Virus record (IMG/VR): IMGVR_UViG_2703718815_000011 | Span: 1 to 11,313 of that record | Length of the DNA stretch: 11,313 bases | From: a virus | Taxonomy: Duplodnaviria > Heunggongvirae > Uroviricota > Caudoviricetes | Direction: 5' to 3' (one strand) | Shown: piece after piece, positions 1-11,313 of the stretch | How positions within the stretch are numbered: position 1 is the first letter of the stretch | Layout of the letters: every line of letters begins with the position of its first letter | The notes under the pieces: generated by a model | What the model saw: the letters and a program-made list of their open reading frames with translations, nothing else | What the model was told of the DNA's origin: nothing | Databases searched by the model: none | Made by a program: the position numbers and the translations under genes

Positions 1-645
1 CGCCCGACGCAGTTCGCGGTTTGCCATATGCAGTGATGGTAAAACCAGGTCATCCGCTCGCGTTTCAGTAAACGATGGCAGCGACTGCACAATGTCCGCC
101 ACAGTTTCTGTTTTAATATCTTCCTGTGTTGCAGCCTCCTGTACTGGTAACGCAACACCTGCGGGCTGAGGAAAGGCCTTACCAGCAGTTTCCGCTACCG
201 ATGCTGCTTTCAGCTCTGCTGGTAAATTATCGCCCGGTATGCAGTAACGAAATTTACCGCTCTGATTTACGCGAAGCAGACGACCTTTGCTGATTGCCAT
301 TGCCAGCGTTGAAGCCACTTTGCGTGATGTGGTACCAAACAATGTAGCCAGCTCATCCGCCGTTTGTGGTCCACGTTGTTCAATCGTCGCAGTTAAATCG
401 CTCTCTGAAATTTTCGCGACTGTTGCCGTGGTAGTTTCTTCCGGCAGTTCTGCCGGCGCTGGCTGTTCCTGCTGAACGTTGTTATCAGCCACACGCCAGG
501 TGTACGCGCTTTTATCAACGAAACCAGCCTTTTTCAGTTCCCATAGTTCGTTCAGCACTTCTTCACGACTGATATCAAGTCGCGCAGCAAGTTCTATGGA
601 TGTGGCTTTTCCCATTGCTTTCAGTGCATCAAAAACGGTTTCCAT
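1..645 (-). CDS. Tandem winged-helix (DUF1627-like) prophage protein, partial: C-terminus lies beyond the window start (at least 215 codons in window)
   Basis: Hand translation of the minus strand in the frame of the ATG at 643-645 finds no stop down to position 1 ([56 protein letters not shown]...[50 protein letters not shown]...). GGGAGG Shine-Dalgarno 8 nt upstream of the ATG. Two repeated wHTH-like segments. Absent from the ORF track because its stop is outside the window. The plus-strand ORFs 287-475 and 479-664 are its antisense shadows. Confidence 0.75.
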
Positions 646-679
646 TAAAATTTCCTCCCGGTAAAAATTACTTCTCAAC

Positions 680-1345
680 TCAAACAAAACCAGCCGCTTT
701 CCGGCGTTCATACTCCTGTTTCAGCAACTCAATTGGCGTTGGTCCCGACGGGCGTTTTGGTGCTGCCAGTTGTCGCCGGACTGGCGGAACGCTCAGGCCG
801 TTACTAACATGCTTTGCCCATTTCGTCAGCTGCCGTTCTGCAAGCCGTTTTAATTCCCCTTCGGTCATCTGGCGCTCAATCCCCTTTGAACGCATCTCGA
901 GGCAAATGTGATACAGCACAGGTTGAGTCCACGGGTATTTATCGCTTCCGTCGTATCGCCAGGACTCATTGCGCCAGCGTCGGTACTCCTCCATCACGGC
1001 ATCCACCGTCAGACCGAATGGATTTGCCCCACTCTCCGAAATCAGCGCCACAAACTCAGCCAGGTCCGGAGGCCATGTTTCACCTGCCCTGCAACGGTCC
1101 ATGCACTGGCGGCAGACCTGCCGGATTTGCTGCTCAGTCATCGCGCCAATCTGTGCAATCCATAGCTTCGAAGGTGCGGCCCCGTTCTTCTGGGTCCAGC
1201 GGTTCGAATAAACCTCCCCCATGAGTTCCCACAGCTTCCAGGCCGTTTCCGTCGCTGATAAATCCGTTTTCACGTTCCCACTGCTCACGTGCTGCCCGAA
1301 TTTCCTGAACTGCCCGTGATGCGGTGCCACCTGGCTTTGCTGCAT
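680..1345 (-). CDS. Lambda P-like replication protein (DnaB helicase loader family), 221 aa
   Basis: C-terminal two thirds align by eye with lambda P (e.g. [12 protein letters not shown]... / [19 protein letters not shown]... versus lambda FLPSPGQFVAWC... / YPWKSNAHYWLVTNLYQNMRA...). ATG at 1343-1345 is preceded on the minus strand by AGGGGGTG 4 nt upstream. Sits immediately downstream of the initiator-like gene, as O-P does in lambda. Confidence 0.8.
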
Positions 1346-2153
1346 GGTTCACCCCCTTGCTGACTGGTTTAACCTGCGCCCTGACGTGATTTACGTGACG
1401 GGCGAATTTCTGTTCCCACTGAACCTGCGTGAAAACTTTCCCCTCCGCTGCCCAGTAGTCCCGGAAGGCGGCAAGTTCAGCAGGTGTAAATTCCGGCTCT
1501 GGCGGAGCCGCTCCCCACAGTGCAGCCCGTCGTCGGAAATCCGGCGACGGATTCCAGCCGTCGGTCATCGGAAATTTTCCGATAGGTTCGCTCAGGCCTT
1601 CTAGGTAATCAGGTTCCGCTGCCTGCAACGGCAAACCATTCGACTCACTGGTCGGAGCACTCTCGCGCACGCGCGCGCTATGTGTGGGGTTTAATTCTTT
1701 TAGATCTGTATCTGTATCTTTATTAGTTGCTTTTGTGTTTGCGTCATGTTCAAACACCACACCAACATTTGTTTGAACACCTGTTAAATCTCTCTCTTGT
1801 TTTTTTTGAATATCTGCTTCCTTTCTGCTTCTTCTGGCTTGAACAGATGCTTTTCCGGCGGCTGATTTTTTGGTTAATTTTTCCCTGACTGATGCCAGAT
1901 CTTCCTCAATCCGAAGATGCACCCATTCATCGCCGTTATCGCAAAAAAACTCCCGCAAGGATGGTTCCACATCAGCCCATCGCTCGTTAGTCAGACGGGA
2001 AATTTTTGCCAGCCTGTTTTTGGGTATTGGCTTTCCTGTTTGCCAGTAATTGAACATCAGCAACAAATACGCACCGTGCTCCTCTGCTGACAAATGCATG
2101 GTGTCAGCCAGGTAATCAGCTATGTACAGTTGCATGTATGGTAATGCGGCCAT
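1134..2153 (-). CDS. YdaU-like replication initiation protein: N-terminal DUF1376 domain, K/E-rich linker, C-terminal DnaT/O-like region (339 aa from ATG at 2153; an upstream in-frame ATG at 2204 would give 356 aa)
   Basis: Long minus-strand ORF. DUF1376-like signature MAALPYMQLYIADYLADTMHLSAEEHGAYLLLMFNYW starts exactly at the ATG at 2151-2153, which has a weak GGGG SD; the ATG at 2202-2204 has no SD. C-terminal segment FTPAELAAFRDYWAAEGKVFTQVQWEQKFARHV resembles primosomal/O-like C-terminal domains. Start choice is uncertain. Confidence 0.7.
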   Translation of the reverse strand: MAALPYMQLYIADYLADTMHLSAEEHGAYLLLMFNYWQTGKPIPKNRLAKISRLTNERWADVEPSLREFFCDNGDEWVHLRIEEDLASVREKLTKKSAAGKASVQARRSRKEADIQKKQERDLTGVQTNVGVVFEHDANTKATNKDTDTDLKELNPTHSARVRESAPTSESNGLPLQAAEPDYLEGLSEPIGKFPMTDGWNPSPDFRRRAALWGAAPPEPEFTPAELAAFRDYWAAEGKVFTQVQWEQKFARHVNHVRAQVKPVSKGVNHAAKPGGTASRAVQEIRAAREQWERENGFISDGNGLEAVGTHGGGLFEPLDPEERGRTFEAMDCTDWRDD

Positions 2154-2216
2154 AATTGCCCCGTATGATGCTGCCCGGTGGCTTACAATAAGCACAAACA
2201 GCATGGAAACTTTTGC

Positions 2217-2639
2217 TTAATGAACAATGAAAGAATCGTCGGAAGACCCGCCGCCGCTGAAATGCGCTTTACGGTAAACGGCCTGGACTGCGTCATCATG
2301 CGCATCAATTGCCGTACTCAACGCTTCCTGCGCCGCCAGTAATGCACGGCGTTCCAGGGTATCGAAGATGCAGAGTCGGTGACGCAGCTCGCGCGGAAGG
2401 ATTGCCAGAATTGCAGGGATCAGTTTCTGAATTTTTACCCTTTGCGCCTCCGTTTCACCTTTTAACCAACGGTGATAGATGTTCTGCTGATTATTCCAGT
2501 CCTTGCCTGGTACCAAGGGCAATTCGCCGCCCCCCTGGCGCAGATATTCTTCAGTAATTGCGTTAGCGACCCACGCCTGCCCTTTTTCAGCGGCTAGGGC
2601 TAACAACACTGATTCGATGTGCTCATGCCTGATTTTCAT
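2217..2639 (-). CDS. ydaT: YdaT-like protein (reported CII-like regulator / former putative toxin), 140 aa
   Basis: 140-aa ORF, the length I recall for K-12 Rac YdaT. AGGAG SD 7 nt upstream of the ATG at 2637-2639. Lies 10 nt downstream of the Cro-like gene on the same strand. Confidence 0.8.
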   Translation of the reverse strand: MKIRHEHIESVLLALAAEKGQAWVANAITEEYLRQGGGELPLVPGKDWNNQQNIYHRWLKGETEAQRVKIQKLIPAILAILPRELRHRLCIFDTLERRALLAAQEALSTAIDAHDDAVQAVYRKAHFSGGGSSDDSFIVH

Positions 2640-2649
2640 GAATCAACTC

Positions 2650-2898
2650 CTATGCATTTTGTGTGTTAGCCTTACATCCAACAGGTAAACCATCGGTCGG
2701 ATTCGGGTAGATATCAGGCCGGAGTTCATGAGGTGTAACCTCGAAATTCGTTACTTCAGCAACACGTAATGCTTTTTCAGGGCTGAATCTTTCATAGCCC
2801 CCCAGCACTCGACTTACATGCACCTGAGATAAACCCGTTAGCTTCCCAAACTGTAGCTGGGTGATATTTTTCTCTTTTAAATAGTCTCTTAAGTTCAT
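2650..2898 (-). CDS. ydaS: Cro-like HTH (XRE family) regulator, YdaS-like, 82 aa
   Basis: HTH motif NITQLQFGKLTGLSQVHVSRVLGG. First real ATG is at 2896-2898 (the track's M at 2902-2904 is TTG). AGAAGG SD upstream on the minus strand. Divergent from the CI-like repressor gene. I recall K-12 YdaS as slightly longer, so the allele or start may differ. Confidence 0.7.
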   Translation of the reverse strand: MNLRDYLKEKNITQLQFGKLTGLSQVHVSRVLGGYERFSPEKALRVAEVTNFEVTPHELRPDIYPNPTDGLPVGCKANTQNA

Positions 2899-2927
2899 AG
2901 CCAACCTTCTACGTTATGCCTCGAGAA

Positions 2928-3000
2928 AATATTAGCCCCACTAATTTTAAAGATCAATAGTCAGACTATCTTTGATAATATTGGTAAAACAAATAAACTC
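2928..3000. promoter_or_regulatory. Divergent immunity promoters and operator: PR-like (minus strand, -10 TAATAT = plus 2928-2933, -35 TTGATC = plus 2952-2957, 18-nt spacer); PRM-like (plus strand, -35 TTGATA 2972-2977, -10 TAAACT 2994-2999); 13-bp palindrome ATAGTC-A-GACTAT at 2957-2969 between the two -35 elements
   Basis: Hexamers and palindrome read directly from sequence. Architecture matches a lambdoid OR region between CI-like and Cro-like genes. No promoter-scoring software was run. Confidence 0.45.
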
Positions 3001-3005
3001 TATGT

Positions 3006-3467
3006 ATGAAAAAAACACGCGAAGTGATTGCAACTCCAGAAGCGAGCAAGAATTTAAAAGCCGCATGGAATGCAAGAAAAAAAGAGCTGAAGCTGACTCA
3101 AGAGCTGGCGGCTGAGTTGTTGGGATTCGAATCTCAAGGCACCGTTAGCCAGTATCTGAACGGCAAGATACCGATAAATACCGACGCTGCGCTAAAATTT
3201 GCGGCTCTGTTAAAGGTAAAACCAGAGGACATTCGAGAAGACCTTAAAGACTTAATGAATTATGTAAGATCATCAGATACTTATGATGATAGCTTTTCAG
3301 GCAAAGGATGGAGGCTGGTCAATGAAGAACAGGCAGAGTTACTTAACCTCTTCGAGATTCTACCTGCGTCAGAAAAAGCCAAACTCCTTAACCAGCTACG
3401 TGGACTAAACAAGCTCTACGAGGAAGCCTTCGAGAACATGCTGGCACTAAAGAAACGCAACCAGTAG
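3006..3467 (+). CDS. racR: CI-type prophage repressor, HTH_XRE N-terminal domain, no recognisable S24 (LexA-like) autopeptidase domain; RacR-like, 153 aa
   Basis: HTH LTQELAAELLGFESQGTVSQYLNGKIPINTDAALKFAALLKVKPEDI. No SD upstream of the ATG at 3006 and a -10-like element ends ~6 nt upstream, suggesting a leaderless mRNA as for lambda cI from PRM. Followed by a strong terminator. Confidence 0.75.
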   Translation: MKKTREVIATPEASKNLKAAWNARKKELKLTQELAAELLGFESQGTVSQYLNGKIPINTDAALKFAALLKVKPEDIREDLKDLMNYVRSSDTYDDSFSGKGWRLVNEEQAELLNLFEILPASEKAKLLNQLRGLNKLYEEAFENMLALKKRNQ

Positions 3468-3493
3468 CCACCGCTCACTACCCCATCCACAAC

Positions 3494-3524
3494 AAAAAAA
3501 ACCGACGTCTTAGTCGGTTTTTTT
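3494..3524. terminator. Bidirectional intrinsic terminator (A-tract, CCGAC-GTCTTA-GTCGG stem-loop, T7 tract)
   Basis: AAAAAAAACCGACGTCTTAGTCGGTTTTTTT read directly from sequence, 27 nt after the repressor stop. The A-tract/T-tract symmetry means it can terminate transcripts from either strand. Confidence 0.7.
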
Positions 3525-3621
3525 GTGCCATAACTTCTGCAAATCAGCTGTATAACTAATATTTTTCCCTTGAAAAAACATTTACTTAGTTACCAAATCA
3601 AAAACATCATACGTCACACTG

Positions 3622-3650
3622 TTGACTTGAAATATCCGTATTACTAATAT
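3622..3650 (+). promoter_or_regulatory. pL-like sigma70 promoter: TTGACT (3622-3627), 17-nt spacer, TAATAT (3645-3650)
   Basis: Near-consensus hexamers with optimal spacing, 68 nt upstream of the first gene of the + strand early operon (3718). The -10 lies inside a 15-bp motif that is repeated 88 bp upstream. Confidence 0.55.
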
Positions 3651-3717
3651 TTCTATCAAGAACAGCACGGCGCTGTAGGTTTTAGTTCCGCCACCCGGCG
3701 TTAAGGGGAGAGATAAG

Positions 3718-4023
3718 ATGACATTTACTCAGAGTATTGACCCGCCAGAAACGAATAATGCTGTATTTTGCCTGGCGTATGAATTGTCTGTACAAGCATC
3801 AACAATGGCAAAGGAGAGAGAGCTAACTCCAAGGCAGGCACGTCTCGCACTGGAACTCGCCAGCCGGGTATCAGTAGCAAAAAAAATCGCACCAGCCGTA
3901 ATGGCACGAAACCTGGCTAATGCAATTACAGATGTCAGGTCACTACAACCATACAATTATCATGTCGAAGAGGCATTAGAAAAATTAATCGCTGCTGCGG
4001 ACGCCATCATTGATGAACTGTAA
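3718..4023 (+). CDS. Hypothetical small Ala-rich helical protein, 101 aa; first gene of the early-left operon (the position N occupies in lambda, but no arginine-rich motif)
   Basis: Strong SD AAGGGGAGAG 6-8 nt upstream of the ATG; protein-like composition. Function unknown. Confidence 0.7.
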   Translation: MTFTQSIDPPETNNAVFCLAYELSVQASTMAKERELTPRQARLALELASRVSVAKKIAPAVMARNLANAITDVRSLQPYNYHVEEALEKLIAAADAIIDEL

Positions 4024-4218
4024 TAATTGATATGCGGGAGAATTTCTATTCCTGAGAGACGCATTTTTCACGCCCGGACAACGCCCGGCAATTGCCAGAT
4101 TCAGTTTTTCACGCTGCTCTGGCGTAAGAAGTTTAACAAGTTCTTCAAGAACAAGCGTGGTAGCCTCTAATCTGGCGGAAAGATAATCAATATTTTTGTG
4201 TTGAGATTGAATAGGCAT
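3985..4218 (-). CDS. Hypothetical 77-aa protein on the opposite strand in the sieB-equivalent position; convergent with, and overlapping by 39 nt, the 3718-4023 gene
   Basis: ATG at plus 4216-4218 with TAAGGA SD 7 nt upstream on the minus strand. Candidate extended -10 promoter upstream. Product MPIQSQHKNIDYLSARLEATTLVLEELVKLLTPEQREKLNLAIAG... is soluble and helical; it is not SieB-like (SieB is a membrane protein). Confidence 0.5.
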   Translation of the reverse strand: MPIQSQHKNIDYLSARLEATTLVLEELVKLLTPEQREKLNLAIAGRCPGVKNASLRNRNSPAYQLLQFINDGVRSSD

Positions 4219-4250
4219 AAGCAATTCCTTACTGGTTGTGTGAGAACTCC

Positions 4251-4279
4251 AGTATACCACCGAGCCTGAAGTGGTAAAA
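4251..4279 (-). promoter_or_regulatory. Candidate extended -10 promoter for the 3985-4218 gene (minus-strand TGgTATACT; weak -35 TTTTAC)
   Basis: Minus-strand sequence ...TTTTAC-N17-TATACT with TG at -15/-14, read from the reverse complement of 4251-4279. Weak -35, so low confidence. Confidence 0.3.
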
Positions 4280-4448
4280 AGACAGGCATACAACACGAAG
4301 GCGCATTTCCGGTATCCATAAAGAGTCGGTCTTGTCTGTGAAATTTAAATGGTGGGAGTGCGCCTCCGGTTGTGAATAACAACACTGCTGTGTGTAGTCT
4401 TGGCGGCATCAGTTTTTTCTTGAAGTACGACTGATGTCTGCCCTTTTT

Positions 4449-4594
4449 AAAGTGAATTTTGTGATGCGGTGAATGCGGCTAAGCGCACGCGGCACAGTTA
4501 AAAGCATCAGTGTTATGGGTGGATTATCCGGCGTTAATTGTTAACTGGTTAACGTCACCTGGAGGCACCAGGCACCGCATCACAAAATTCACTT
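4449..4594. repeat. Perfect 22-bp inverted repeat AAGTGAATTTTGTGATGCGGTG (4449-4470) / CACCGCATCACAAAATTCACTT (4573-4594) flanking a 102-bp segment
   Basis: Exact reverse-complement match verified base by base. The right arm ends 22 nt before the ATG of the 4616 gene. The enclosed segment contains GTTAACTGGTTAAC (two palindromic GTTAAC hexamers). Confidence 0.9.
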
Positions 4595-4615
4595 AGTAAC
4601 CAAGAAGGGAATTAT

Positions 4616-4888
4616 ATGCAAGAGATAAGTTTTGAAGTAACAGCAAAAGATGTACAGGTTAAGCCCGATTACAATCAAAAATTATGTATTGAAGTCAATG
4701 GCGTGAAGTTATCAGACCTGATTGATTCAGTTGAAGATAACGACGCTATTATTGAAATGGTTGGAGCCGAAGAAATAGCAGAATACTTTTCAACAGAGGG
4801 GCGTCTTCATGAGCTTCTGGAAAAATTTTCATATCAGGATATCGCTACATTTCTGGAAATTAATGGTTATAAAGTTACCGAGGAATAA
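4616..4888 (+). CDS. Hypothetical highly acidic small protein, 90 aa (about 21 D/E versus 7 K/R)
   Basis: AAGAAGGGA SD 6 nt upstream of the ATG. Charge counted directly from the translation. No family recognised. Confidence 0.7.
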   Translation: MQEISFEVTAKDVQVKPDYNQKLCIEVNGVKLSDLIDSVEDNDAIIEMVGAEEIAEYFSTEGRLHELLEKFSYQDIATFLEINGYKVTEE

Positions 4889-4906
4889 AGTAGCTCAGGT
4901 GGCGTT

Positions 4907-5116
4907 ATGGAACGTAATCATCTAACAGCTATCAGTGCCGCACAGAGTAAATTCGCCATCGCTGTATTTTTACAGGATGAAGAAATGTTTGAGCAGGCCA
5001 TTATTCAGTTTGCAATTGCGACCGGGAGTAAAATAAATGAACACTTTGTTCGCTCTTGTCATGACCGTTTTTCTGACATCAGGCGAAACTCAGGATGTTG
5101 TTACCGGAATTTATAA
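4907..5116 (+). CDS. Hypothetical 69-aa ORF; its 3' third overlaps the next gene out of frame
   Basis: AGGTGG SD 4 nt upstream. N-terminal 43 aa look protein-like, but the C-terminal part falls in the overlap with the 5037 gene and looks poor. It could be real, shorter, or spurious. Confidence 0.3.
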   Translation: MERNHLTAISAAQSKFAIAVFLQDEEMFEQAIIQFAIATGSKINEHFVRSCHDRFSDIRRNSGCCYRNL

Positions 5117-5273
5117 CTCCGAATCTGAATGCAAGGCCGCAGCTATTGAGCAAAAAGTAGCTGGTGAATGTTTCCCTGTTGAGAAATTTATCCGGCCTGT
5201 AGATGAAGAAATTCCCGCAGGCCTCACAGGAGAAAATCATGAAAATAAAATGTGGTTACCACCTTTGCAATAA
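5037..5273 (+). CDS. Hypothetical 78-aa protein with N-terminal hydrophobic segment and two Cys; occupies the position of kil/kilR upstream of ydaE
   Basis: GGGAG SD 8 nt upstream of the ATG. N-terminus MNTLFALVMTVFLTSG is hydrophobic without a basic n-region (membrane anchor rather than a classical signal peptide). Assignment as a KilR homologue is positional only; I cannot recall the KilR sequence. Confidence 0.55.
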   Translation: MNTLFALVMTVFLTSGETQDVVTGIYNSESECKAAAIEQKVAGECFPVEKFIRPVDEEIPAGLTGENHENKMWLPPLQ

Positions 5274-5403
5274 AGACGTTGAAGAAAGCAAAACTATTAC
5301 AAGACCACTTCATTTCATGCGTGGAGTTATCCCAACGACGGAAATGAAAAAATATTGTAGTGAAAATTGTGCCGAAAAAGACCAGATGGCACACGAACTT
5401 TAA
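5239..5403 (+). CDS. ydaE: YdaE-like small Cys4 (zinc-binding) protein, 54 aa
   Basis: MKIKCGYHLCNKDVEESKTITRPLHFMRGVIPTTEMKKYCSENCAEKDQMAHEL, with Cys pairs C5/C10 and C40/C44. GGAG SD 6 nt upstream of the ATG at 5239; the track's upstream ATG at 5203 has no SD. Lies between the kil-position gene and racC, as in Rac. Confidence 0.65.
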   Translation: MKIKCGYHLCNKDVEESKTITRPLHFMRGVIPTTEMKKYCSENCAEKDQMAHEL

Positions 5404-5477
5404 TTAACTGACTATTCGAAACTGAATTTATGCCAGCAATGGCAGGGATTCGCTCAACCTTAATTAAGGAGAAAAAC

Positions 5478-5753
5478 ATGATTACCAATTATGAAGCCAC
5501 TGTTGTAACTACCGATGACATTGTTCACGAGGTTAATCTGGAAGGAAAGCGTATTGGCTACGTGATTAAAACAGAAAATAAAGAAACCCCATTCACTGTG
5601 GTTGATATCGACGGTCCATCAGGCAACGTAAAAACACTTGATGAAGGTGTCACAAAAATGTGCCTGGTTCACATCGGAAAGAATCTGCCCGCAGAAAAAA
5701 AAGCCGGATTTCTGGCAACTCTGATTGCAATGAAATTAAACGGTGAAATCTGA
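5478..5753 (+). CDS. racC: RacC-like protein, 91 aa, function unknown
   Basis: AAGGAG SD 8 nt upstream of the ATG at 5478. Sequence MITNYEATVVTTDDIVHEVNLEGKRIGYVIK... matches my recollection of Rac RacC. Immediately upstream of recE. Confidence 0.8.
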   Translation: MITNYEATVVTTDDIVHEVNLEGKRIGYVIKTENKETPFTVVDIDGPSGNVKTLDEGVTKMCLVHIGKNLPAEKKAGFLATLIAMKLNGEI

Positions 5754-5758
5754 AAGAA

Positions 5759-5783
5759 ATAGCCTGCGTATGGCGCAGGCTAT
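5759..5783 (+). other. GC-rich hairpin (10-bp stem ATAGCCTGCG / CGCAGGCTAT, 5-nt loop) in the racC-recE intergenic space, with no following U-tract
   Basis: Inverted repeat read directly from sequence. The lack of a T-run argues against an intrinsic terminator and for an RNA stability or processing element. Confidence 0.45.
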
Positions 5784-5854
5784 GAACAGTGTGTATCCGG
5801 CAAGATCATTCACTGAACAAAACGAATTTTAATCTGAGTTGAGGTTAAAAAACA

Positions 5855-8527
5855 ATGAGCACAAAACCACTCTTCCTGTTACGGAAAGCGAAAAAATCAT
5901 CCGGTGAACCTGACGTCGTCCTGTGGGCAAGCGACGATTTTGAATCGACCTGTGCCACTCTGGACTACCTGCTCGTTAAGTCAGGTAAAAAACTGAGCAG
6001 CTATTTTAAACCTGTTGCCACGAATTTTCCTGTCGTTAATGACCTTCCCCCTGAAGGTGAGATCGATTTTACCTGGAGTGAACGCTATCAACTCAGCAAA
6101 GACTCCATGACCTGGGAACTAAAACCGGGAGCAGCGCCAGACGACGTTCACCATCAGGAGAATGCACCGGAAACCGAAGAACCGGCGGGAGGCCAGGAAG
6201 AAAACACACGGGCAGACGCTCACGGGGATTGCCAGGATTGCGAAGTATCTGTATCTACTTTGCGGTTCACACAGCGTCTTCTGCACATTTTTACCTATGC
6301 GGCCGGGGATCGGAAATACCTGCATCATGCCACCCGAGAACAACGCGAACACATTACTGCTCTTGAGATGGATCAGGAAAACAGCTATGTCCAGAATCTG
6401 CTGTTGGCCATACGCGGCATGGCAGAACCGACAACTCTGGATAATGCCGCCCTGCTCCGCCTGACTGATGCAATTAAGGCAGTTTTCTCTATCACGAAAA
6501 AACATCAGCCCTATGAATTTAAGAATTTCATTTCAGCCTGGCTGGATACCGAACACATTGATCGCGGTCTTCTGACAAAAGAATGGCGAAGTGGGAATCG
6601 TGTTTCACGCATCACTCGCACGGCTTCCGGTGCTAATGCTGGCGGCGGGAACCTCACCGATCGCGGCGAAGGTTTCGTCCACGATCTGACGTCACTGGCG
6701 CGCGATGTAGCCACTGGCGTACTGGCCCGTTCAATGGACGTGGACATCTATAACCTTCATCCGGCACACGCTAAACGCATTGAGGAAATTATCGCTGAAA
6801 ATAAACCGCCCTTTTCTGTTTTCCGCGACAAATTCATCACCATGCCTGGCGGGCTGGATTATTCACGCGCCATCGTGGTTGCGTCCGTGAAAGAAGCACC
6901 AATTGGGATCGAGGTCATCCCCGCGCACGTCACTGAATATCTGAACAAAGTACTGACTGAAACCGATCATGCCAACCCTGATCCGGAAATCGTGGATATT
7001 GCCTGCGGTCGCTCCTCTGCCCCGATGCCGCAGCGTGTAACAGAAGAAGGAAAACAGGATGATGAAGAAAAACCGCAACCATCTGAAACAACGGCAGATG
7101 AACAGGGAGAGGCTGAAACAATGGAACCGGACGCAACTGAACATCATCAGGACACGCAGCCGCTGGATGCTCAGTCACAGGTAAATTCTGTTGATGCGAA
7201 ATATCAGGAACTGCGGGCAGAACTCCATGAAGCCCGGAAAAACATTCCATCAAAAAATCCTGTCGATGCCGATAAATTACTTGCTGCATCACGTGGTGAA
7301 TTTGTTGACGGAATTAGCGACCCGAACGATCCGAAATGGGTTAAGGGGATCCAGACTCGCGATTCTGTGTACCAGAACCAGCCAGAAACGGAACAAAACA
7401 CGCCAGAAACGGAAAAAACCAGCCCGGATGTGAAACAACCTGAGCCAGTAGTGCAACAGGAACCGGAAATAGTCTGCAATGCCTGCGGTCAGACTGGCGG
7501 GGATAACTGCCCTGACTGTGGTGCGGTGATGGGCGACGCAACATACCAGGAAACATTCGGTGAAGAGAATCAGGTTGAAGCTAAGGAAAATGATCCGGAG
7601 GAAATGGAAGGCGCTGAACATCCGCACAATGAGAATGCTGGCAGCGATCCGCATCGCGATTGCAGTGATGAAACTGGCGAAGTCGCAGATCCCGTAATCG
7701 TAGAAGACATAGAGCCAGGTATTTATTACGGAATTTCGAATGAGAATTACCACGCGGGTCCCGGTGTCAGTAAGTCTCAGCTCGACGACATTGCTGATAC
7801 TCCGGCACTGTATTTGTGGCGTAAAAATGCCCCCGTGGACACCACAAAGACAAAAACGCTCGATTTAGGAACCGCTTTCCACTGCCGGGTACTTGAACCG
7901 GAAGAATTCAGTAACCGCTTTATCGTAGCACCTGAATTTAACCGCCGTACAAACGCCGGAAAAGAAGAAGAGAAAGCGTTTCTGATGGAATGCGCAAGCA
8001 CAGGAAAAACGGTTATCACTGCGGAAGAAGGCCGGAAAATTGAACTCATGTATCAAAGCGTTATGGCTTTGCCGCTGGGGCAATGGCTTGTTGAAAGCGC
8101 CGGACACGCTGAATCATCAATTTACTGGGAAGATCCTGAAACAGGAATTTTGTGTCGGTGCCGTCCGGACAAAATTATCCCTGAATTTCACTGGATCATG
8201 GACGTGAAAACTACGGCAGATATTCAACGATTCAAAACCGCTTATTACGACTACCGCTATCACGTTCAGGATGCATTCTACAGTGACGGTTATGAAGCAC
8301 AGTTTGGAGTGCAGCCAACTTTCGTTTTTCTGGTTGCCAGCACAACTATTGAATGCGGACGTTATCCGGTTGAAATTTTCATGATGGGCGAAGAAGCAAA
8401 ACTGGCAGGTCAGCTGGAATATCACCGCAATCTGCGAACCCTGGCTGACTGCCTCAATACCGATGAATGGCCAGCTATTAAGACGTTATCACTGCCCCGC
8501 TGGGCTAAGGAATATGCAAATGACTAA
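5855..8527 (+). CDS. recE: Exodeoxyribonuclease VIII (RecE), 890 aa, with C-terminal PD-(D/E)xK exonuclease domain
   Basis: N-terminus [26 protein letters not shown]... and the C-terminal ~300 aa (...[24 protein letters not shown]...[36 protein letters not shown]...) match RecE as I recall it. Its stop overlaps the recT start, as in Rac. Confidence 0.95.
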
Positions 8528-9329
8528 GCAACCACCAATCGCAAAAGCCGATCTGCAAAAAACTCAGGGAAACCGTGCACCAGCAGCAATTAAAAATAAC
8601 GACGTGATTAGTTTTATTAACCAGCCATCAATGAAAGAGCAACTGGCAGCAGCTCTTCCACGCCATATGACGGCTGAACGTATGATCCGTATCGCCACCA
8701 CAGAAATTCGTAAAGTTCCGGCGTTAGGAAACTGTGACACTATGAGTTTTGTCAGTGCAATCGTACAGTGTTCACAGCTCGGACTTGAGCCAGGTAGCGC
8801 CCTCGGTCATGCATATTTACTGCCTTTTGGTAATAAAAACGAAAAGAGCGGTAAAAAAAACGTTCAGCTAATCATTGGCTATCGCGGCATGATTGATCTG
8901 GCTCGCCGTTCAGGTCAAATCGCCAGCCTGTCAGCCCGTGTTGTCCGTGAAGGTGACGAGTTTAATTTCGAATTTGGCCTTGATGAAAAGTTAATACACC
9001 GCCCAGGAGAAAACGAAGATGCCCCGGTTACCCACGTCTATGCTGTCGCAAGACTGAAAGACGGAGGTACTCAGTTTGAAGTTATGACGCGCAAACAGAT
9101 TGAGCTGGTGCGCAGCCAGAGTAAAGCTGGTAATAACGGACCGTGGGTAACTCACTGGGAAGAAATGGCAAAGAAAACGGCTATTCGTCGCCTGTTCAAA
9201 TACCTGCCCGTATCAATTGAGATCCAGCGTGCAGTATCAATGGATGAAAAGGAACCACTGACAATCGATCCTGCAGATTCCTCTGTATTAACCGGGGAAT
9301 ACAGTGTAATCGATAATTCAGAGGAATAA
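8520..9329 (+). CDS. recT: Recombinase RecT (single-strand annealing protein), 269 aa
   Basis: [23 protein letters not shown]...; the ATG at 8520 overlaps the recE stop (ATGACTAA). AAGGA SD upstream. The track's longer 288-aa ORF starts at an upstream in-frame ATG inside recE. Confidence 0.95.
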
Positions 9330-9385
9330 TTCAGCCTGGCGGTGTAATGCACCGCCAACTTGAAATATTTTTTATGAGAAAAATT

Positions 9386-9580
9386 ATGAGATATGACAAT
9401 GTTAAACCATGTCCATTTTGTGGTTGTCCATCTGTTACGGTGAAAGCAATTTCAGGATATTACCGGGCAAAATGCAACGGATGCGAATCCCGAACCGGCT
9501 ATGGTGGAAGTGAAAAAGAAGCACTCGAACGATGGAATAAACGAACCACTGGAAATAATAATGGAGGTGTTCATGTATAA
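9386..9580 (+). CDS. ralR: RalR (restriction alleviation protein; reported DNase toxin of a type I toxin-antitoxin pair with the sRNA RalA), 64 aa
   Basis: MRYDNVKPCPFCGCPSVTVKAISGYYRAKCNGCESRTGYGGSEKEALERWNKRTTGNNNGGVHV, with Cys4 motif. Start chosen at 9386 to give the 64-aa product; in-frame ATGs also at 9374 and 9347. Confidence 0.85.
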   Translation: MRYDNVKPCPFCGCPSVTVKAISGYYRAKCNGCESRTGYGGSEKEALERWNKRTTGNNNGGVHV

Positions 9581-9761
9581 AATTACCGCCACTATTGAAA
9601 AGGAAGGTGGCACTCCTACTAACTGGACAAGGTACTCAAAAACAAAATTAACCAAATCAGAATGCGAAAAAATGCTCTCAGGTAAAAAAGAAGCTGGCGT
9701 TTCCAGAGAGCAGAAAGTAAAACTGATAAATTTTAATTGCGAGAAACTTCAGTCGTCGTGA
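9573..9761 (+). CDS. ydaC: YdaC-like small protein, 62 aa, function unknown
   Basis: MYKITATIEKEGGTPTNWTRYSKTKL... GGAGG SD 5 nt upstream of the ATG at 9573. Overlaps the ralR stop by 8 nt. Confidence 0.8.
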   Translation: MYKITATIEKEGGTPTNWTRYSKTKLTKSECEKMLSGKKEAGVSREQKVKLINFNCEKLQSS

Positions 9762-9793
9762 ATTGCATTGTATTCAAATTAAAACTTCATAGC

Positions 9794-9809
9794 TGATTAT
9801 TAATAATCA
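9794..9809. promoter_or_regulatory. Perfect 16-bp palindrome TGATTATTAATAATCA, 51 nt upstream of xis
   Basis: Self-complementarity verified by hand. It lies in the only intergenic gap between the recombination genes and xis-int, so it is a candidate regulator-binding site. No function demonstrated. Confidence 0.3.
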
Positions 9810-9860
9810 ACATCGGGCGTCAATTTCAGTCTAACATTGGCGCCTGCCAGAGGTGATGCG

Positions 9861-10076
9861 ATGGCACAAGTAATCTTTAATGAAGAGTGGATGGTTGAAT
9901 ACGGCCTGATGCTTCGCACTGGTCTGGGGGCCAGACAAATTGAAGCATACCGCCAGAACTGTTGGGTGGAAGGCTTCCACTTCAAACGAGTATCTCCTTT
10001 AGGGAAGCCAGACAGTAAGCGAGGGATTATCTGGTACAACTATCCAAAGATAAATCAGTTTATCAAAGACTCATGA
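9861..10076 (+). CDS. xisR: Excisionase (Xis family), 71 aa
   Basis: [80 protein letters not shown] upstream of the ATG at 9861. Stop is 1 nt before the int start. Confidence 0.85.
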
Positions 10077-10077
10077 T

Positions 10078-11313
10078 ATGTCTAAATTACCAACAGGTGT
10101 CGAGATTCGAGGTAAATACATTCGCATCTGGTTCATGTTTCGAGGAAAACGATGTCGGGAAACATTGAAAGGCTGGGAGGTTACTAACAGTAACATTAAA
10201 AAGGCCGGAAATTTAAGAGCGTTGATAGTTCATGAAATCAACTCCGGTGAATTTGAGTATTTAAGACGTTTTCCCCAGTCCAGTACTGGGGCAAAAATGG
10301 TGACAACGAGGGTCATAAAAACGTTCGGCGAGCTTTGTGATATCTGGACAAAAATTAAAGAAACAGAGTTAACAACAAACACAATGAAGAAAACGAAATC
10401 ACAATTAAAAACACTCAGGATAATAATTTGTGAGAGTACCCCGATATCACATATTCGTTATAGCGATATCTTAAACTACCGGAATGAACTGCTGCATGGA
10501 GAAACGCTTTACCTGGATAATCCAAGATCCAACAAAAAAGGAAGAACCGTGCGCACAGTTGATAACTATATTGCCCTGCTCTGTTCGTTGTTACGTTTTG
10601 CGTATCAGTCGGGATTTATATCAACCAAACCATTTGAAGGAGTAAAAAAATTACAGCGAAACAGAATAAAGCCTGACCCGTTATCTAAAACAGAATTCAA
10701 TGCATTAATGGAAAGTGAAAAAGGACAGAGCCAGAACTTGTGGAAATTTGCCGTTTACTCCGGGCTTCGTCACGGGGAACTGGCTGCTCTGGCGTGGGAG
10801 GATGTGGATTTCGAGAAGGGAATTGTGAATGTCAGAAGAAACCTGACGATACTTGATATGTTCGGTCCCCCAAAAACAAATGCGGGGATCCGGACGGTAA
10901 CACTACTACAGCCTGCTCTTGAAGCACTGAAGGAGCAATACAAACTGACCGGGCATCATCGCAAAAGCGAAATCACCTTTTATCATCGGGAGTACGGCAG
11001 AACCGAAAAGCAAAAACTGCATTTTGTTTTCATGCCCAGAGTGTGTAACGGAAAACAGAAACCTTATTACTCGGTAAGCAGTTTGGGTGCGAGATGGAAT
11101 GCAGCTGTAAAACGTGCTGGTATTCGCCGCCGTAATCCGTACCATACGCGACATACTTTTGCCTGCTGGCTGTTGACGGCAGGAGCGAACCCGGCATTTA
11201 TAGCCAGCCAGATGGGGCATGAAACTGCGCAGATGGTGTATGAAATTTACGGTATGTGGATTGATGACATGAACGACGAACAGGTAGCCATGTTGAATGC
11301 GCGGTTATCGTAG
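10078..11313 (+). CDS. intR: Tyrosine site-specific integrase (lambda Int family), 411 aa, Rac IntR-like
   Basis: N-terminus MSKLPTGVEIRGKYIRIWFMFRGKRCRETLKGW. Catalytic-domain motifs (...YSGLRHGELAALAWEDVDF..., ...HTRHTFACWLL..., ...MGHETAQMVYEIYGMW). Stop codon TAG is the last 3 bases of the window. Confidence 0.95.
   Translation: MSKLPTGVEIRGKYIRIWFMFRGKRCRETLKGWEVTNSNIKKAGNLRALIVHEINSGEFEYLRRFPQSSTGAKMVTTRVIKTFGELCDIWTKIKETELTTNTMKKTKSQLKTLRIIICESTPISHIRYSDILNYRNELLHGETLYLDNPRSNKKGRTVRTVDNYIALLCSLLRFAYQSGFISTKPFEGVKKLQRNRIKPDPLSKTEFNALMESEKGQSQNLWKFAVYSGLRHGELAALAWEDVDFEKGIVNVRRNLTILDMFGPPKTNAGIRTVTLLQPALEALKEQYKLTGHHRKSEITFYHREYGRTEKQKLHFVFMPRVCNGKQKPYYSVSSLGARWNAAVKRAGIRRRNPYHTRHTFACWLLTAGANPAFIASQMGHETAQMVYEIYGMWIDDMNDEQVAMLNARLS

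Follow-up and report, generated by a model that had tools for sequence, protein, structure and literature searches.

In a window of 11,313 nucleotides (nt) of Caudoviricetes DNA (positions 1 to 11,313 of the IMG/VR record IMGVR_UViG_2703718815_000011), two small open reading frames (ORFs), ORF101 and ORF77, run towards each other and overlap at their 3' ends. The window, by which we mean this whole stretch, is a Rac/Qin-like lambdoid prophage. We find that ORF77 occupies the slot of the prophage gene sieB and that it starts beside a conserved element which is homologous to the 3' half of sas, the antisense RNA of sieB in phage P22. The architecture we favour, with a probability of roughly 60%, is that ORF77 is an accessory gene expressed in the prophage from the sieB slot and silenced on induction by read-through from the early-left promoter pL together with a sas-like antisense RNA. 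The features on which the argument rests are given here by position and strand.

3622-3650, plus strand: pL-like sigma-70 promoter, TTGACT-17-TAATAT, with 9 of 12 matches in the promoter scan.
3718-4023, plus strand: ORF101, 101 amino acids (aa), the first gene after pL.
3985-4218, minus strand: ORF77, 77 aa, the cargo gene of the sieB slot.
3925-3887, followed by eight U at 3886-3879, minus strand: hairpin resembling an intrinsic terminator, within about codons 54-69 of ORF101 and 60-106 nt past the ORF77 stop.
Complement of 4226-4230, minus strand: ribosome-binding site of ORF77, AAGGA, 7 nt before the ATG.
4278 to 4251, minus strand: promoter of ORF77, TTTACC-16-TGgTATACT with an extended -10 box, at consensus level in the promoter scan.
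4216-4288, plus strand (pL direction): sas-like conserved element of roughly 70 nt.

From the layout of the window, the early-left (pL) operon starts with ORF101 and contains ORF77 on the opposite strand. Eight prophage lineages carry the pair, with amino-acid identities of 33-79%. These are the present E. coli group, an enterobacterial contig (L002), Pantoea sp. JZ2 (L003), Salmonella Hull (L021), Lelliottia (L027) and three metagenomic contigs (L156-L158). In all eight, a helix-turn-helix (HTH) repressor directly precedes the two genes, and kil and the recombination genes follow them. The convergent overlap of 39 nt (3985-4023) has the same length in L002, L003, L021, L027 and L158 and measures 36 nt in L156 and L157.

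The slot is the sieB slot. In a further lineage, L025, a SieB gene (Pfam: PF14163) lies opposite the ORF101 homologue across a 92-nt gap, and this lineage has the pL leader and the DicF flank of the window in common, which places ORF77 in the position of sieB. Like sieB, ORF77 also runs against pL and towards the first gene of the pL operon, and kil and the recombination genes come after it. The occupants of this position are highly diverse. ORFs starting at the CAT beside each element in the viral contigs L036-L150 encode 75 distinct proteins of 55-163 aa, which fall into at least 25 unrelated families. Among these are the ORF77 family, YmfI, a predicted membrane protein (106 aa) and CxxC zinc-ribbon proteins (76 and 67 aa), and SieB and HkaP are found in the same position beside the element subtype of lambda and P22. 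Convergent 3' overlaps with the facing gene are common, with 63 nt in e14, 30 nt in pAEv1818 and 32 nt in mEp460. At the level of consensus sequences, ORF77 has the attributes of a moron, namely its own promoter (4278 to 4251), its own terminator-like hairpin with eight U and an orientation independent of the operon.

The sas-like element covers the 5' end of ORF77 and the region of its promoter. Read in the pL direction, it consists of the following parts.

4216-4218: complement of the ORF77 start codon.
4225-4230: TTCCTT, complement of the ORF77 ribosome-binding site.
4230-4254: hairpin 1, TACTGG/CCAGTA.
4255-4276: hairpin 2, TACCAC/GTGGTA, with the invariant loop GCCTGA.
4283-4288: CAGGCA, preceded by an A-rich tract.

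The element is conserved far better than the genes beside it. Between E. coli and Pantoea it is near-identical, with flanking proteins of only about 50% identity, and near-identical copies are also present in L002, in Salmonella, Klebsiella, Cronobacter and Shigella phages, and in the K-12 prophage e14 directly upstream of ymfI. The segment 4256-4291 matches lambda-type phages with 94% identity over 36 nt, and only the 3' half of sas is in common. The distal half is also found 50-80 nt upstream of sieB in lambda and P22. In P22, the sas RNA has a length of 127 nt; its start is complementary to the sieB start codon, and GAACCACCGAGCCUGACGUGGUUAAAAGACAGGCACAAUC lies within it (small-RNA sequencing of 2026, PMC13397905 Table 2). 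Since the distal half of the element falls within this 127-nt P22 sas read sequence, it corresponds to the 3' part of sas. The sas antisense RNA turns off SieB translation during P22 growth (reviewed in PMC12197685 and PMC7067206). Two properties of sas are present here, which are sequence homology to the P22 RNA and complementarity to the translation start on the opposite strand. No Rfam model matched 4216-4288, and in the literature searched we found no description of a wider conservation of the sas-like element.

Scanning viral contigs for TACCACC-N9-GTGG-NN-AAAAG detected more than 120 loci with 83 distinct variants. Hairpin 1 always ends beside the TACCACC, and its stem sequence varies, with 24 distinct stems such as ACTGG/CCAGT, GCTGG/CCAGC, CTTGG/CCAAG, CCTTTTA/TAAAAGG and CCTTAAAA/TTTTAAGG. 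Because the offset of these stems varies between sequences, a MAFFT alignment analysed with RNAalifold yielded hairpin 2 only, and an anchored-stem count with shuffles was used instead. Stems of at least 6 bp are present in 54 of the 69 distinct sequences compared with 20% of the shuffles, and the covariation of hairpin 1 is genuine. Hairpin 2 is almost invariant, and more than 60 variants show hardly any change in its loop GCCTGA or in the tail CAGGCA. We also considered the TACTGG-N13-CCAGTA palindrome as a site for LexA control of ORF77 and rejected it; its spacing is wrong compared with CTG-N10-CAG, and it covaries like an RNA stem. The GCCUG of the hairpin 2 loop is complementary to the CAGGC of the tail, with the A-rich linker between them, so that an H-type pseudoknot might form in the window 4261-4287 (plus strand). 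For this pairing there is one compensatory case (GCCCGG/CCGGGC in L025), four wobble-compatible changes and 2-4 disruptive ones, which is thin evidence.

The mechanism we propose would work as follows. In the lysogen, the repressor would keep pL off and ORF77 would be transcribed from its own promoter at 4278 to 4251, ending at 3925-3879. On induction or infection, pL would fire and ORF101 would be made first; the transcript would be antisense to all of ORF77 and its translation start, and would then cross 4216-4288. By homology with P22 sas, the segment 4216-4288 may be kept as a stable antisense RNA, which would block ORF77 translation and expose the duplex to RNase III. The ORF77 promoter would in addition be disturbed by the head-on transcription from pL. 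Overall, ORF77 would work only in the quiescent prophage. We infer that the proposed RNAs would exist in this prophage and that antisense RNA would silence ORF77.

Several observations weigh against this architecture. ORF77 has no membrane segment, no SieB similarity and no match to a PADLOC defence model, and the internal terminator is absent in L003 and L158, which are two of six lineages including the window. The two element types are not strictly equivalent, because the half that they share overlaps the predicted promoter here but is located upstream of the mapped one of sieB in P22. The folding strand is not decided by G-U pairs or by minimum free energies, both strands scoring alike, so the hairpins could belong to the ORF77 mRNA or to the DNA. 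Moreover, the plus strand gave no convincing promoter for an independent sas-like RNA, which would therefore need to be processed from pL transcripts.

The last two points also fit another explanation, in which the element does no more than provide the promoter and 5' leader for the cargo gene on the minus strand and any coupling to pL is a plain transcriptional collision with no dedicated antisense RNA. The sigma-70 pattern TTnACC-16-TGgTAnnnT is indeed kept on the minus strand across the element variants, including A2 and T6 of the -10 box. In addition, ExcludonFinder scored the K-12 analogues ymfI-ymfJ and sieB-ydaF as convergent excludons, i.e. gene pairs with overlapping transcripts, from RNA sequencing coverage alone (PMC12288877). 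On the other hand, if transcription starts about 7 nt after the -10 box, one arm of hairpin 1 falls outside the ORF77 mRNA, yet its stem covaries in 24 forms; this favours the plus-strand RNA as the species that would fold. The near-invariant loop and tail would be needless for a promoter spacer, and in P22 the homologous segment forms part of an RNA with the orientation of pL (PMC13397905). We regard the explanation by promoter and collision as possible, though doubtful.

The coding content of the pair points to a joint inheritance that involves only a part of ORF101. ORF101 is acidic, with an isoelectric point (pI) of 5.07, and its AlphaFold2 model consists of four helices with a predicted local distance difference test (pLDDT) score of 63. 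The N-terminal part carries the motif ITPKDARLALELASR. The C-terminal part of about 40 aa is a module, ADAIxxIxxLQ..NP..E..L.KLI.AAD.LL, which co-occurs with ORF77. In the metagenomic contigs L156-L158 the facing proteins have a different N-terminal part, which is YmfJ-like in L158 and of another type in L156 and L157, and keep the C-terminal residues (about 40) of ORF101. These chimeric facing proteins are located as follows.

L158, 3205-3483.
L156, 931-1251.
L157, 3202-3627.

The boundary of the shared module, or recombination joint, is close to the minus-strand terminator embedded in ORF101; the 5' arm of this terminator is antisense to the codons for 'LADA'. The ORF77 family is always accompanied by the C-terminal module of the plus-strand protein, but the converse fails; the module also occurs opposite SieB in L025 and opposite an unrelated 92-aa ORF, at a 31-nt gap, in L023. 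Judging from these alignments, the co-inherited unit is ORF77 together with the C-terminal module of the facing gene. ORF101 belongs to a tiny orphan family with 15 matches in the profile search. It was rejected as an N-type antiterminator given its pI and its N-terminus MTFTQSIDPPETNN, which is without an arginine-rich motif; only the position is shared with N.

One could read this association as a protein-level antagonistic pair, in which ORF77 is an exclusion or toxic protein and the ORF101 C-terminal module its antidote, as Esc is to SieB, and in which the overlap keeps both inseparable. The constant company of the module even where the N-terminal part is replaced, its purifying selection in the ORF101 frame and the complementary charges of the proteins (pI 5.07 and 8.98) would agree with such an antagonism. 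However, the physical overlap and the embedded terminator already account for the co-inheritance, the module also occurs without ORF77 as described above, and neither protein is similar to known toxin or antitoxin families. An antagonistic pair is therefore unlikely in our view.

The embedded terminator also bears on how far the two transcripts can interfere. Its stem at 3925-3887 folds at -16.6 kcal/mol with z = -2.25 (terminator scan and fold), and a hairpin with a U-rich tract is found at the homologous place in three of the five other lineages compared (L002, L021 and L027). Because of this hairpin and its eight U at 3925-3879, the ORF77 transcript is expected to end inside ORF101, short of 3524, and it probably covers only the last 145 nt or so of ORF101. 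The predicted overlap of the transcripts is at least 145 nt (3879-4023), or all of ORF77 under read-through from pL.

An earlier note on this DNA, made from the sequence alone, had proposed an obligatory mutual antisense interference between the two genes, an arrangement it called typical of regulatory switches, toxin-antitoxin-like pairs or exclusion modules. As a full model, this would be a switch or toxin-antitoxin-like pair in which each transcript silences the other over its whole length and a bistable state results. It had the coordinates of both genes and the 39-nt overlap exactly right, and the bidirectional terminator it described is a perfect palindrome at 3495-3524. Its independent promoters, pL-like at 3622-3650 and extended -10 at 4278 to 4251, hold at consensus level. 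The two convergent promoters and the real 3' overlap speak for such a switch. Its assumption that no minus-strand terminator precedes 3494-3524 did not survive, however, and with it went the claim that the minus transcript runs antisense through the entire ORF101, given the hairpin and eight U at 3925-3879. Furthermore, operator-like repeats at pL suggest that pL is repressed in the lysogen, so the pL and ORF77 units would rarely be on together. Neither protein has a DNA-binding or toxin fold, and a slot filled by 25 unrelated families is unlike a core switch. Antisense coupling remains the likely logic of the locus, but in place of the obligatory mutual form it is probably asymmetric, with pL transcription and the sas-like element acting against ORF77. 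We consider a mutual, bistable switch improbable. A core regulatory switch or a toxin-antitoxin pair is likewise unlikely, with no family match for either protein, at least 25 unrelated cargo families in the slot and ORF101 relatives opposite SieB or the 92-aa ORF. Nor is the arrangement a special switch; it is a known lambdoid design, found as N/sieB in lambda, gene 24/sieB in P22, ydaF/sieB in Rac and ymfJ/ymfI in e14.

Conservation and selection of both reading frames, which the earlier note had named as a check, support the two genes. Over five lineages and outside the overlap, the proportions of non-synonymous (pN) and synonymous (pS) differences are 0.12-0.39 and 0.42-0.96 for ORF77, with a dN/dS of about 0.2-0.3, and 0.19-0.43 and 0.43-0.75 for ORF101, with a dN/dS of 0.15-0.4. 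Together with the persistence of the pair in eight lineages, these substitution patterns indicate that both ORFs are real genes under purifying selection. Inside the 12 overlapping codons, the ORF101 frame is constrained (low pN, high pS), and the tail of ORF77 is a passenger (high pN, low pS). The simplest reading of the 39-nt overlap is compact packing, with the ORF77 tail evolving as a passenger of the conserved ORF101 C-terminus. That ORF77 could be a chance open frame, over-called on the antisense strand of a pL-operon spacer, would agree with its very small family (7 matches among 1.84 billion representative proteins, all 78-90 aa) and with the absence of a domain match, but is effectively refuted by a pN well below pS, by a reading frame that retains its length, its start codon and its ribosome-binding site between E. 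coli, Pantoea and Lelliottia, with 40-79% identity, and by a confident helical fold (pLDDT 75).

ORF77 is a basic protein (pI 8.98) with a grand average of hydropathy of -0.40, and its AlphaFold2 model is soluble with three to four helices. The conserved core reads RLEA..LVLEEL.KLLSPEQR.KL...I...P.VKNAS....YQL. Neither ORF77 nor ORF101 gave anything significant in Pfam, PHROG, NCBIfam or PADLOC. Matches to LTXXQ and IraP (E 0.01-0.09) were under the curated cut-offs and were taken as noise from helical composition. PDB profile searches returned designed helical proteins only for both proteins, and Foldseek found no match with E < 0.7 for either model in the PDB or in BFVD, a set of predicted viral protein structures. 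Scanning the genome contigs with a profile of the ORF77 alignment revealed no further relative. YmfJ and YmfI were rejected as homologues of ORF101 and ORF77, with an hhalign probability below 1%.

What ORF77 does can be guessed from position alone. Because SieB is among the occupants of this hypervariable slot, we tentatively suggest a role in superinfection exclusion, abortive infection or another modification of the host, although we would not call it probable. An exclusion module was among the options of the earlier note. ORF77 shares only the position with SieB, and every sequence-based comparison of the two fails. ORF77 does not match PF14163, a profile search gave only orphans of about 80 aa, and no conserved internal methionine, as for an Esc-type start, is present in the ORF77 alignments. 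A broader proposal, which we likewise put forward as speculative, is that the TACCACC-type element marks a general hypervariable hotspot for cargo, serving as the cargo promoter on one strand and as a universal antisense off switch on the other. ORF77 would then be a new single-gene exclusion or defence factor and the ORF101 C-terminal module possibly an Esc-like second layer of self-immunity.

The region 3480-4620 is 100% identical to a prophage in the chromosome of E. coli STEC005, and its identity to a few further Shiga-toxin-producing strains of E. coli is 98-99%; at least 80% of it is present in only 18 of 5,426 complete E. coli genomes. The Prokaryotic Genome Annotation Pipeline (PGAP) calls ORF101 and ORF77 hypothetical proteins in STEC005, and phage Rac-SA53 lists them as rac11 and rac10. 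The other features of the window are the following.

Minus strand: replication genes and a ydaT-like gene.
2650-2904, minus strand: Cro/YdaS-like gene.
3006-3467, plus strand: HTH_3 repressor gene, without a peptidase domain.
3495-3524, both strands: bidirectional intrinsic terminator after the repressor gene, AAAAAAACCGAC-6 nt-GTCGGTTTTTTT.
3552-3564, plus strand: distal site resembling a left operator, the operator-like repeat ATAACTAATATTT of repeat family D1.
3686-3704, plus strand: pL-leader motif TTCCGCCACCCGGCGTTAA with a CGCC/GGCG stem, directly before the ORF101 ribosome-binding site.
4389-4443, plus strand: DicF-like small RNA (sRNA) in the downstream context of the pL operon, with 37.2 bits in Rfam, under the gathering score of 48.
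4445-4619, plus strand: STnc100-like structure, with 41.4 bits in Rfam, under the gathering score of 47.
Order beyond ORF77: DicF-like sRNA, STnc100-like structure, kil, DUF1482, ydaE, recE, recT, RalA antitoxin sRNA, xis and int.

The palindrome at 3495-3524 is a perfect 12-nt inverted repeat (I5). The operator-like pattern ATWAYTAATATTT has 7 matches against 1.17 expected, and a second operator-like repeat at 3640-3652 overlaps the pL-like promoter. A third copy of ATWAYTAATATTT with one mismatch is located at 4183-4195 (plus strand) within about codons 8-12 of ORF77, where it could be a repressor roadblock or a chance occurrence. TAATATT cores are also present between the cro-like and repressor genes (about 2927-2936 and 2974-2983). 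In the pL leader, about 10 nt past the predicted transcription start, a hairpin ACAGC-ACGGC-GCTGT followed by AGGTTTTAGT (3662-3676, plus strand) was flagged as terminator-like. Its sequence is not conserved in L002 or L003, and it could be an attenuator or a boxB-like hairpin. The leader motif TTCCGCCACCCGGCGTTAA has a variable tetraloop (ACCC/GCCG/AGCC/GGCC) and precedes many unrelated first pL genes in the fetched loci, among them ORF101 and YdaG-like, DUF1391/YdaF-like and YmfJ-like genes. The motif might act as a nut-like element or in processing.

The DicF and STnc100 matches come from an Rfam search at an E-value threshold and both are slightly under their gathering scores. The STnc100-like structure is closed by a perfect 22-nt inverted repeat, I1 (4450-4471 / 4573-4594). 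PGAP places a 'partial DicB' pseudogene (about 4510-4590) inside this structure, which may be a mis-call. A 69-aa ORF at 4907-5116 (plus strand) matches the Pfam family Lambda_Kil with an E-value of 8e-8, exceeding the gathering score. PGAP lists no such gene in the identical region of STEC005, and given the match the ORF is probably a kil gene that the annotation missed. On the minus strand at 9579-9757, a RalA antitoxin sRNA of full length (210 bits) is antisense to an ORF at 9501-9761 (plus strand) with the RalR-like sequence MYKITATIEKEGG. This locus is a type I toxin-antitoxin pair typical of Rac.

New in this study are the cargo with its facing C-terminal module, a second subtype of the sas-like element, which has a covarying hairpin and also serves as the predicted promoter of the cargo, and the finding that the element flanks at least 25 different cargo families. 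If the proposed model is true, one short element keeps many prophage accessory genes on in the lysogen and off in the lytic state, and the sas/sieB mechanism extends to cassettes across phages of Escherichia, Salmonella, Shigella, Klebsiella, Cronobacter and Pantoea. The element also provides a sequence handle for candidate exclusion or defence genes of 55-160 aa, such as ORF77 and ymfI, which are missed by domain-based tools. If the model is wrong, the pair is still real and conserved and would be an ordinary moron-type insertion with no lysis-lysogeny switch.

Compared with known systems, ORF101 and ORF77 do not resemble a type II toxin-antitoxin pair; the genes are convergent, and there is no family match and no structural match. 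With the type I pair RalR/RalA of Rac they have in common a cis-encoded antisense RNA, here a predicted one, over a small prophage gene. In contrast to RalR, ORF77 is without toxin-family similarity or a hydrophobic segment, and the antisense would come from a lytic promoter and not be constitutive. As in morons and defence hotspots (lambda rexAB, bor and lom; bstA of BTP1, PMC7067206), a small gene with its own promoter and terminator is directed against the lytic operon in a variable slot. Unlike those, ORF77 has no PADLOC match, and the slot has a conserved structured element which doubles as the antisense of the cargo translation start.

The K-12 prophage loci ymfJ/ymfI of e14 and ydaF/sieB of Rac share the order of a repressor, a first pL gene and a convergent, overlapping minus-strand gene. 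In e14, a TACCACC-type element lies directly upstream of ymfI with about 90% identity, and ymfI and ymfJ overlap by 63 nt, whereas neither YmfI nor YmfJ is a homologue of ORF77 or ORF101.

The closest comparison is with sieB of lambda and P22. The sieB-esc exclusion gene of P22 and lambda with the sas antisense RNA was reportedly described by Ranade and Poteete in 1993, and the mechanism is said to have been described once, in P22. SieB has about 190 aa and belongs to PF14163, whereas ORF77 with its 77 aa is soluble and unrelated, with no Esc-type start evident. The lambda/P22 element has CTGTAGGGGT repeats in the promoter-proximal half, where the TACTGG/CCAGTA hairpin is found here, and N and sieB of lambda abut, whereas ORF101 and ORF77 overlap by 39 nt. 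In both, however, the gene has a promoter of its own and runs against pL towards the first gene of that operon, which is N or gene 24 in lambda and P22 and ORF101 in the window, and a hairpin of 33-36 nt, ACCACCGAGCCTGAnGTGGTnAAAAGACAGGCA, which in P22 is part of the sas RNA, is found just past the 5' end of the gene.

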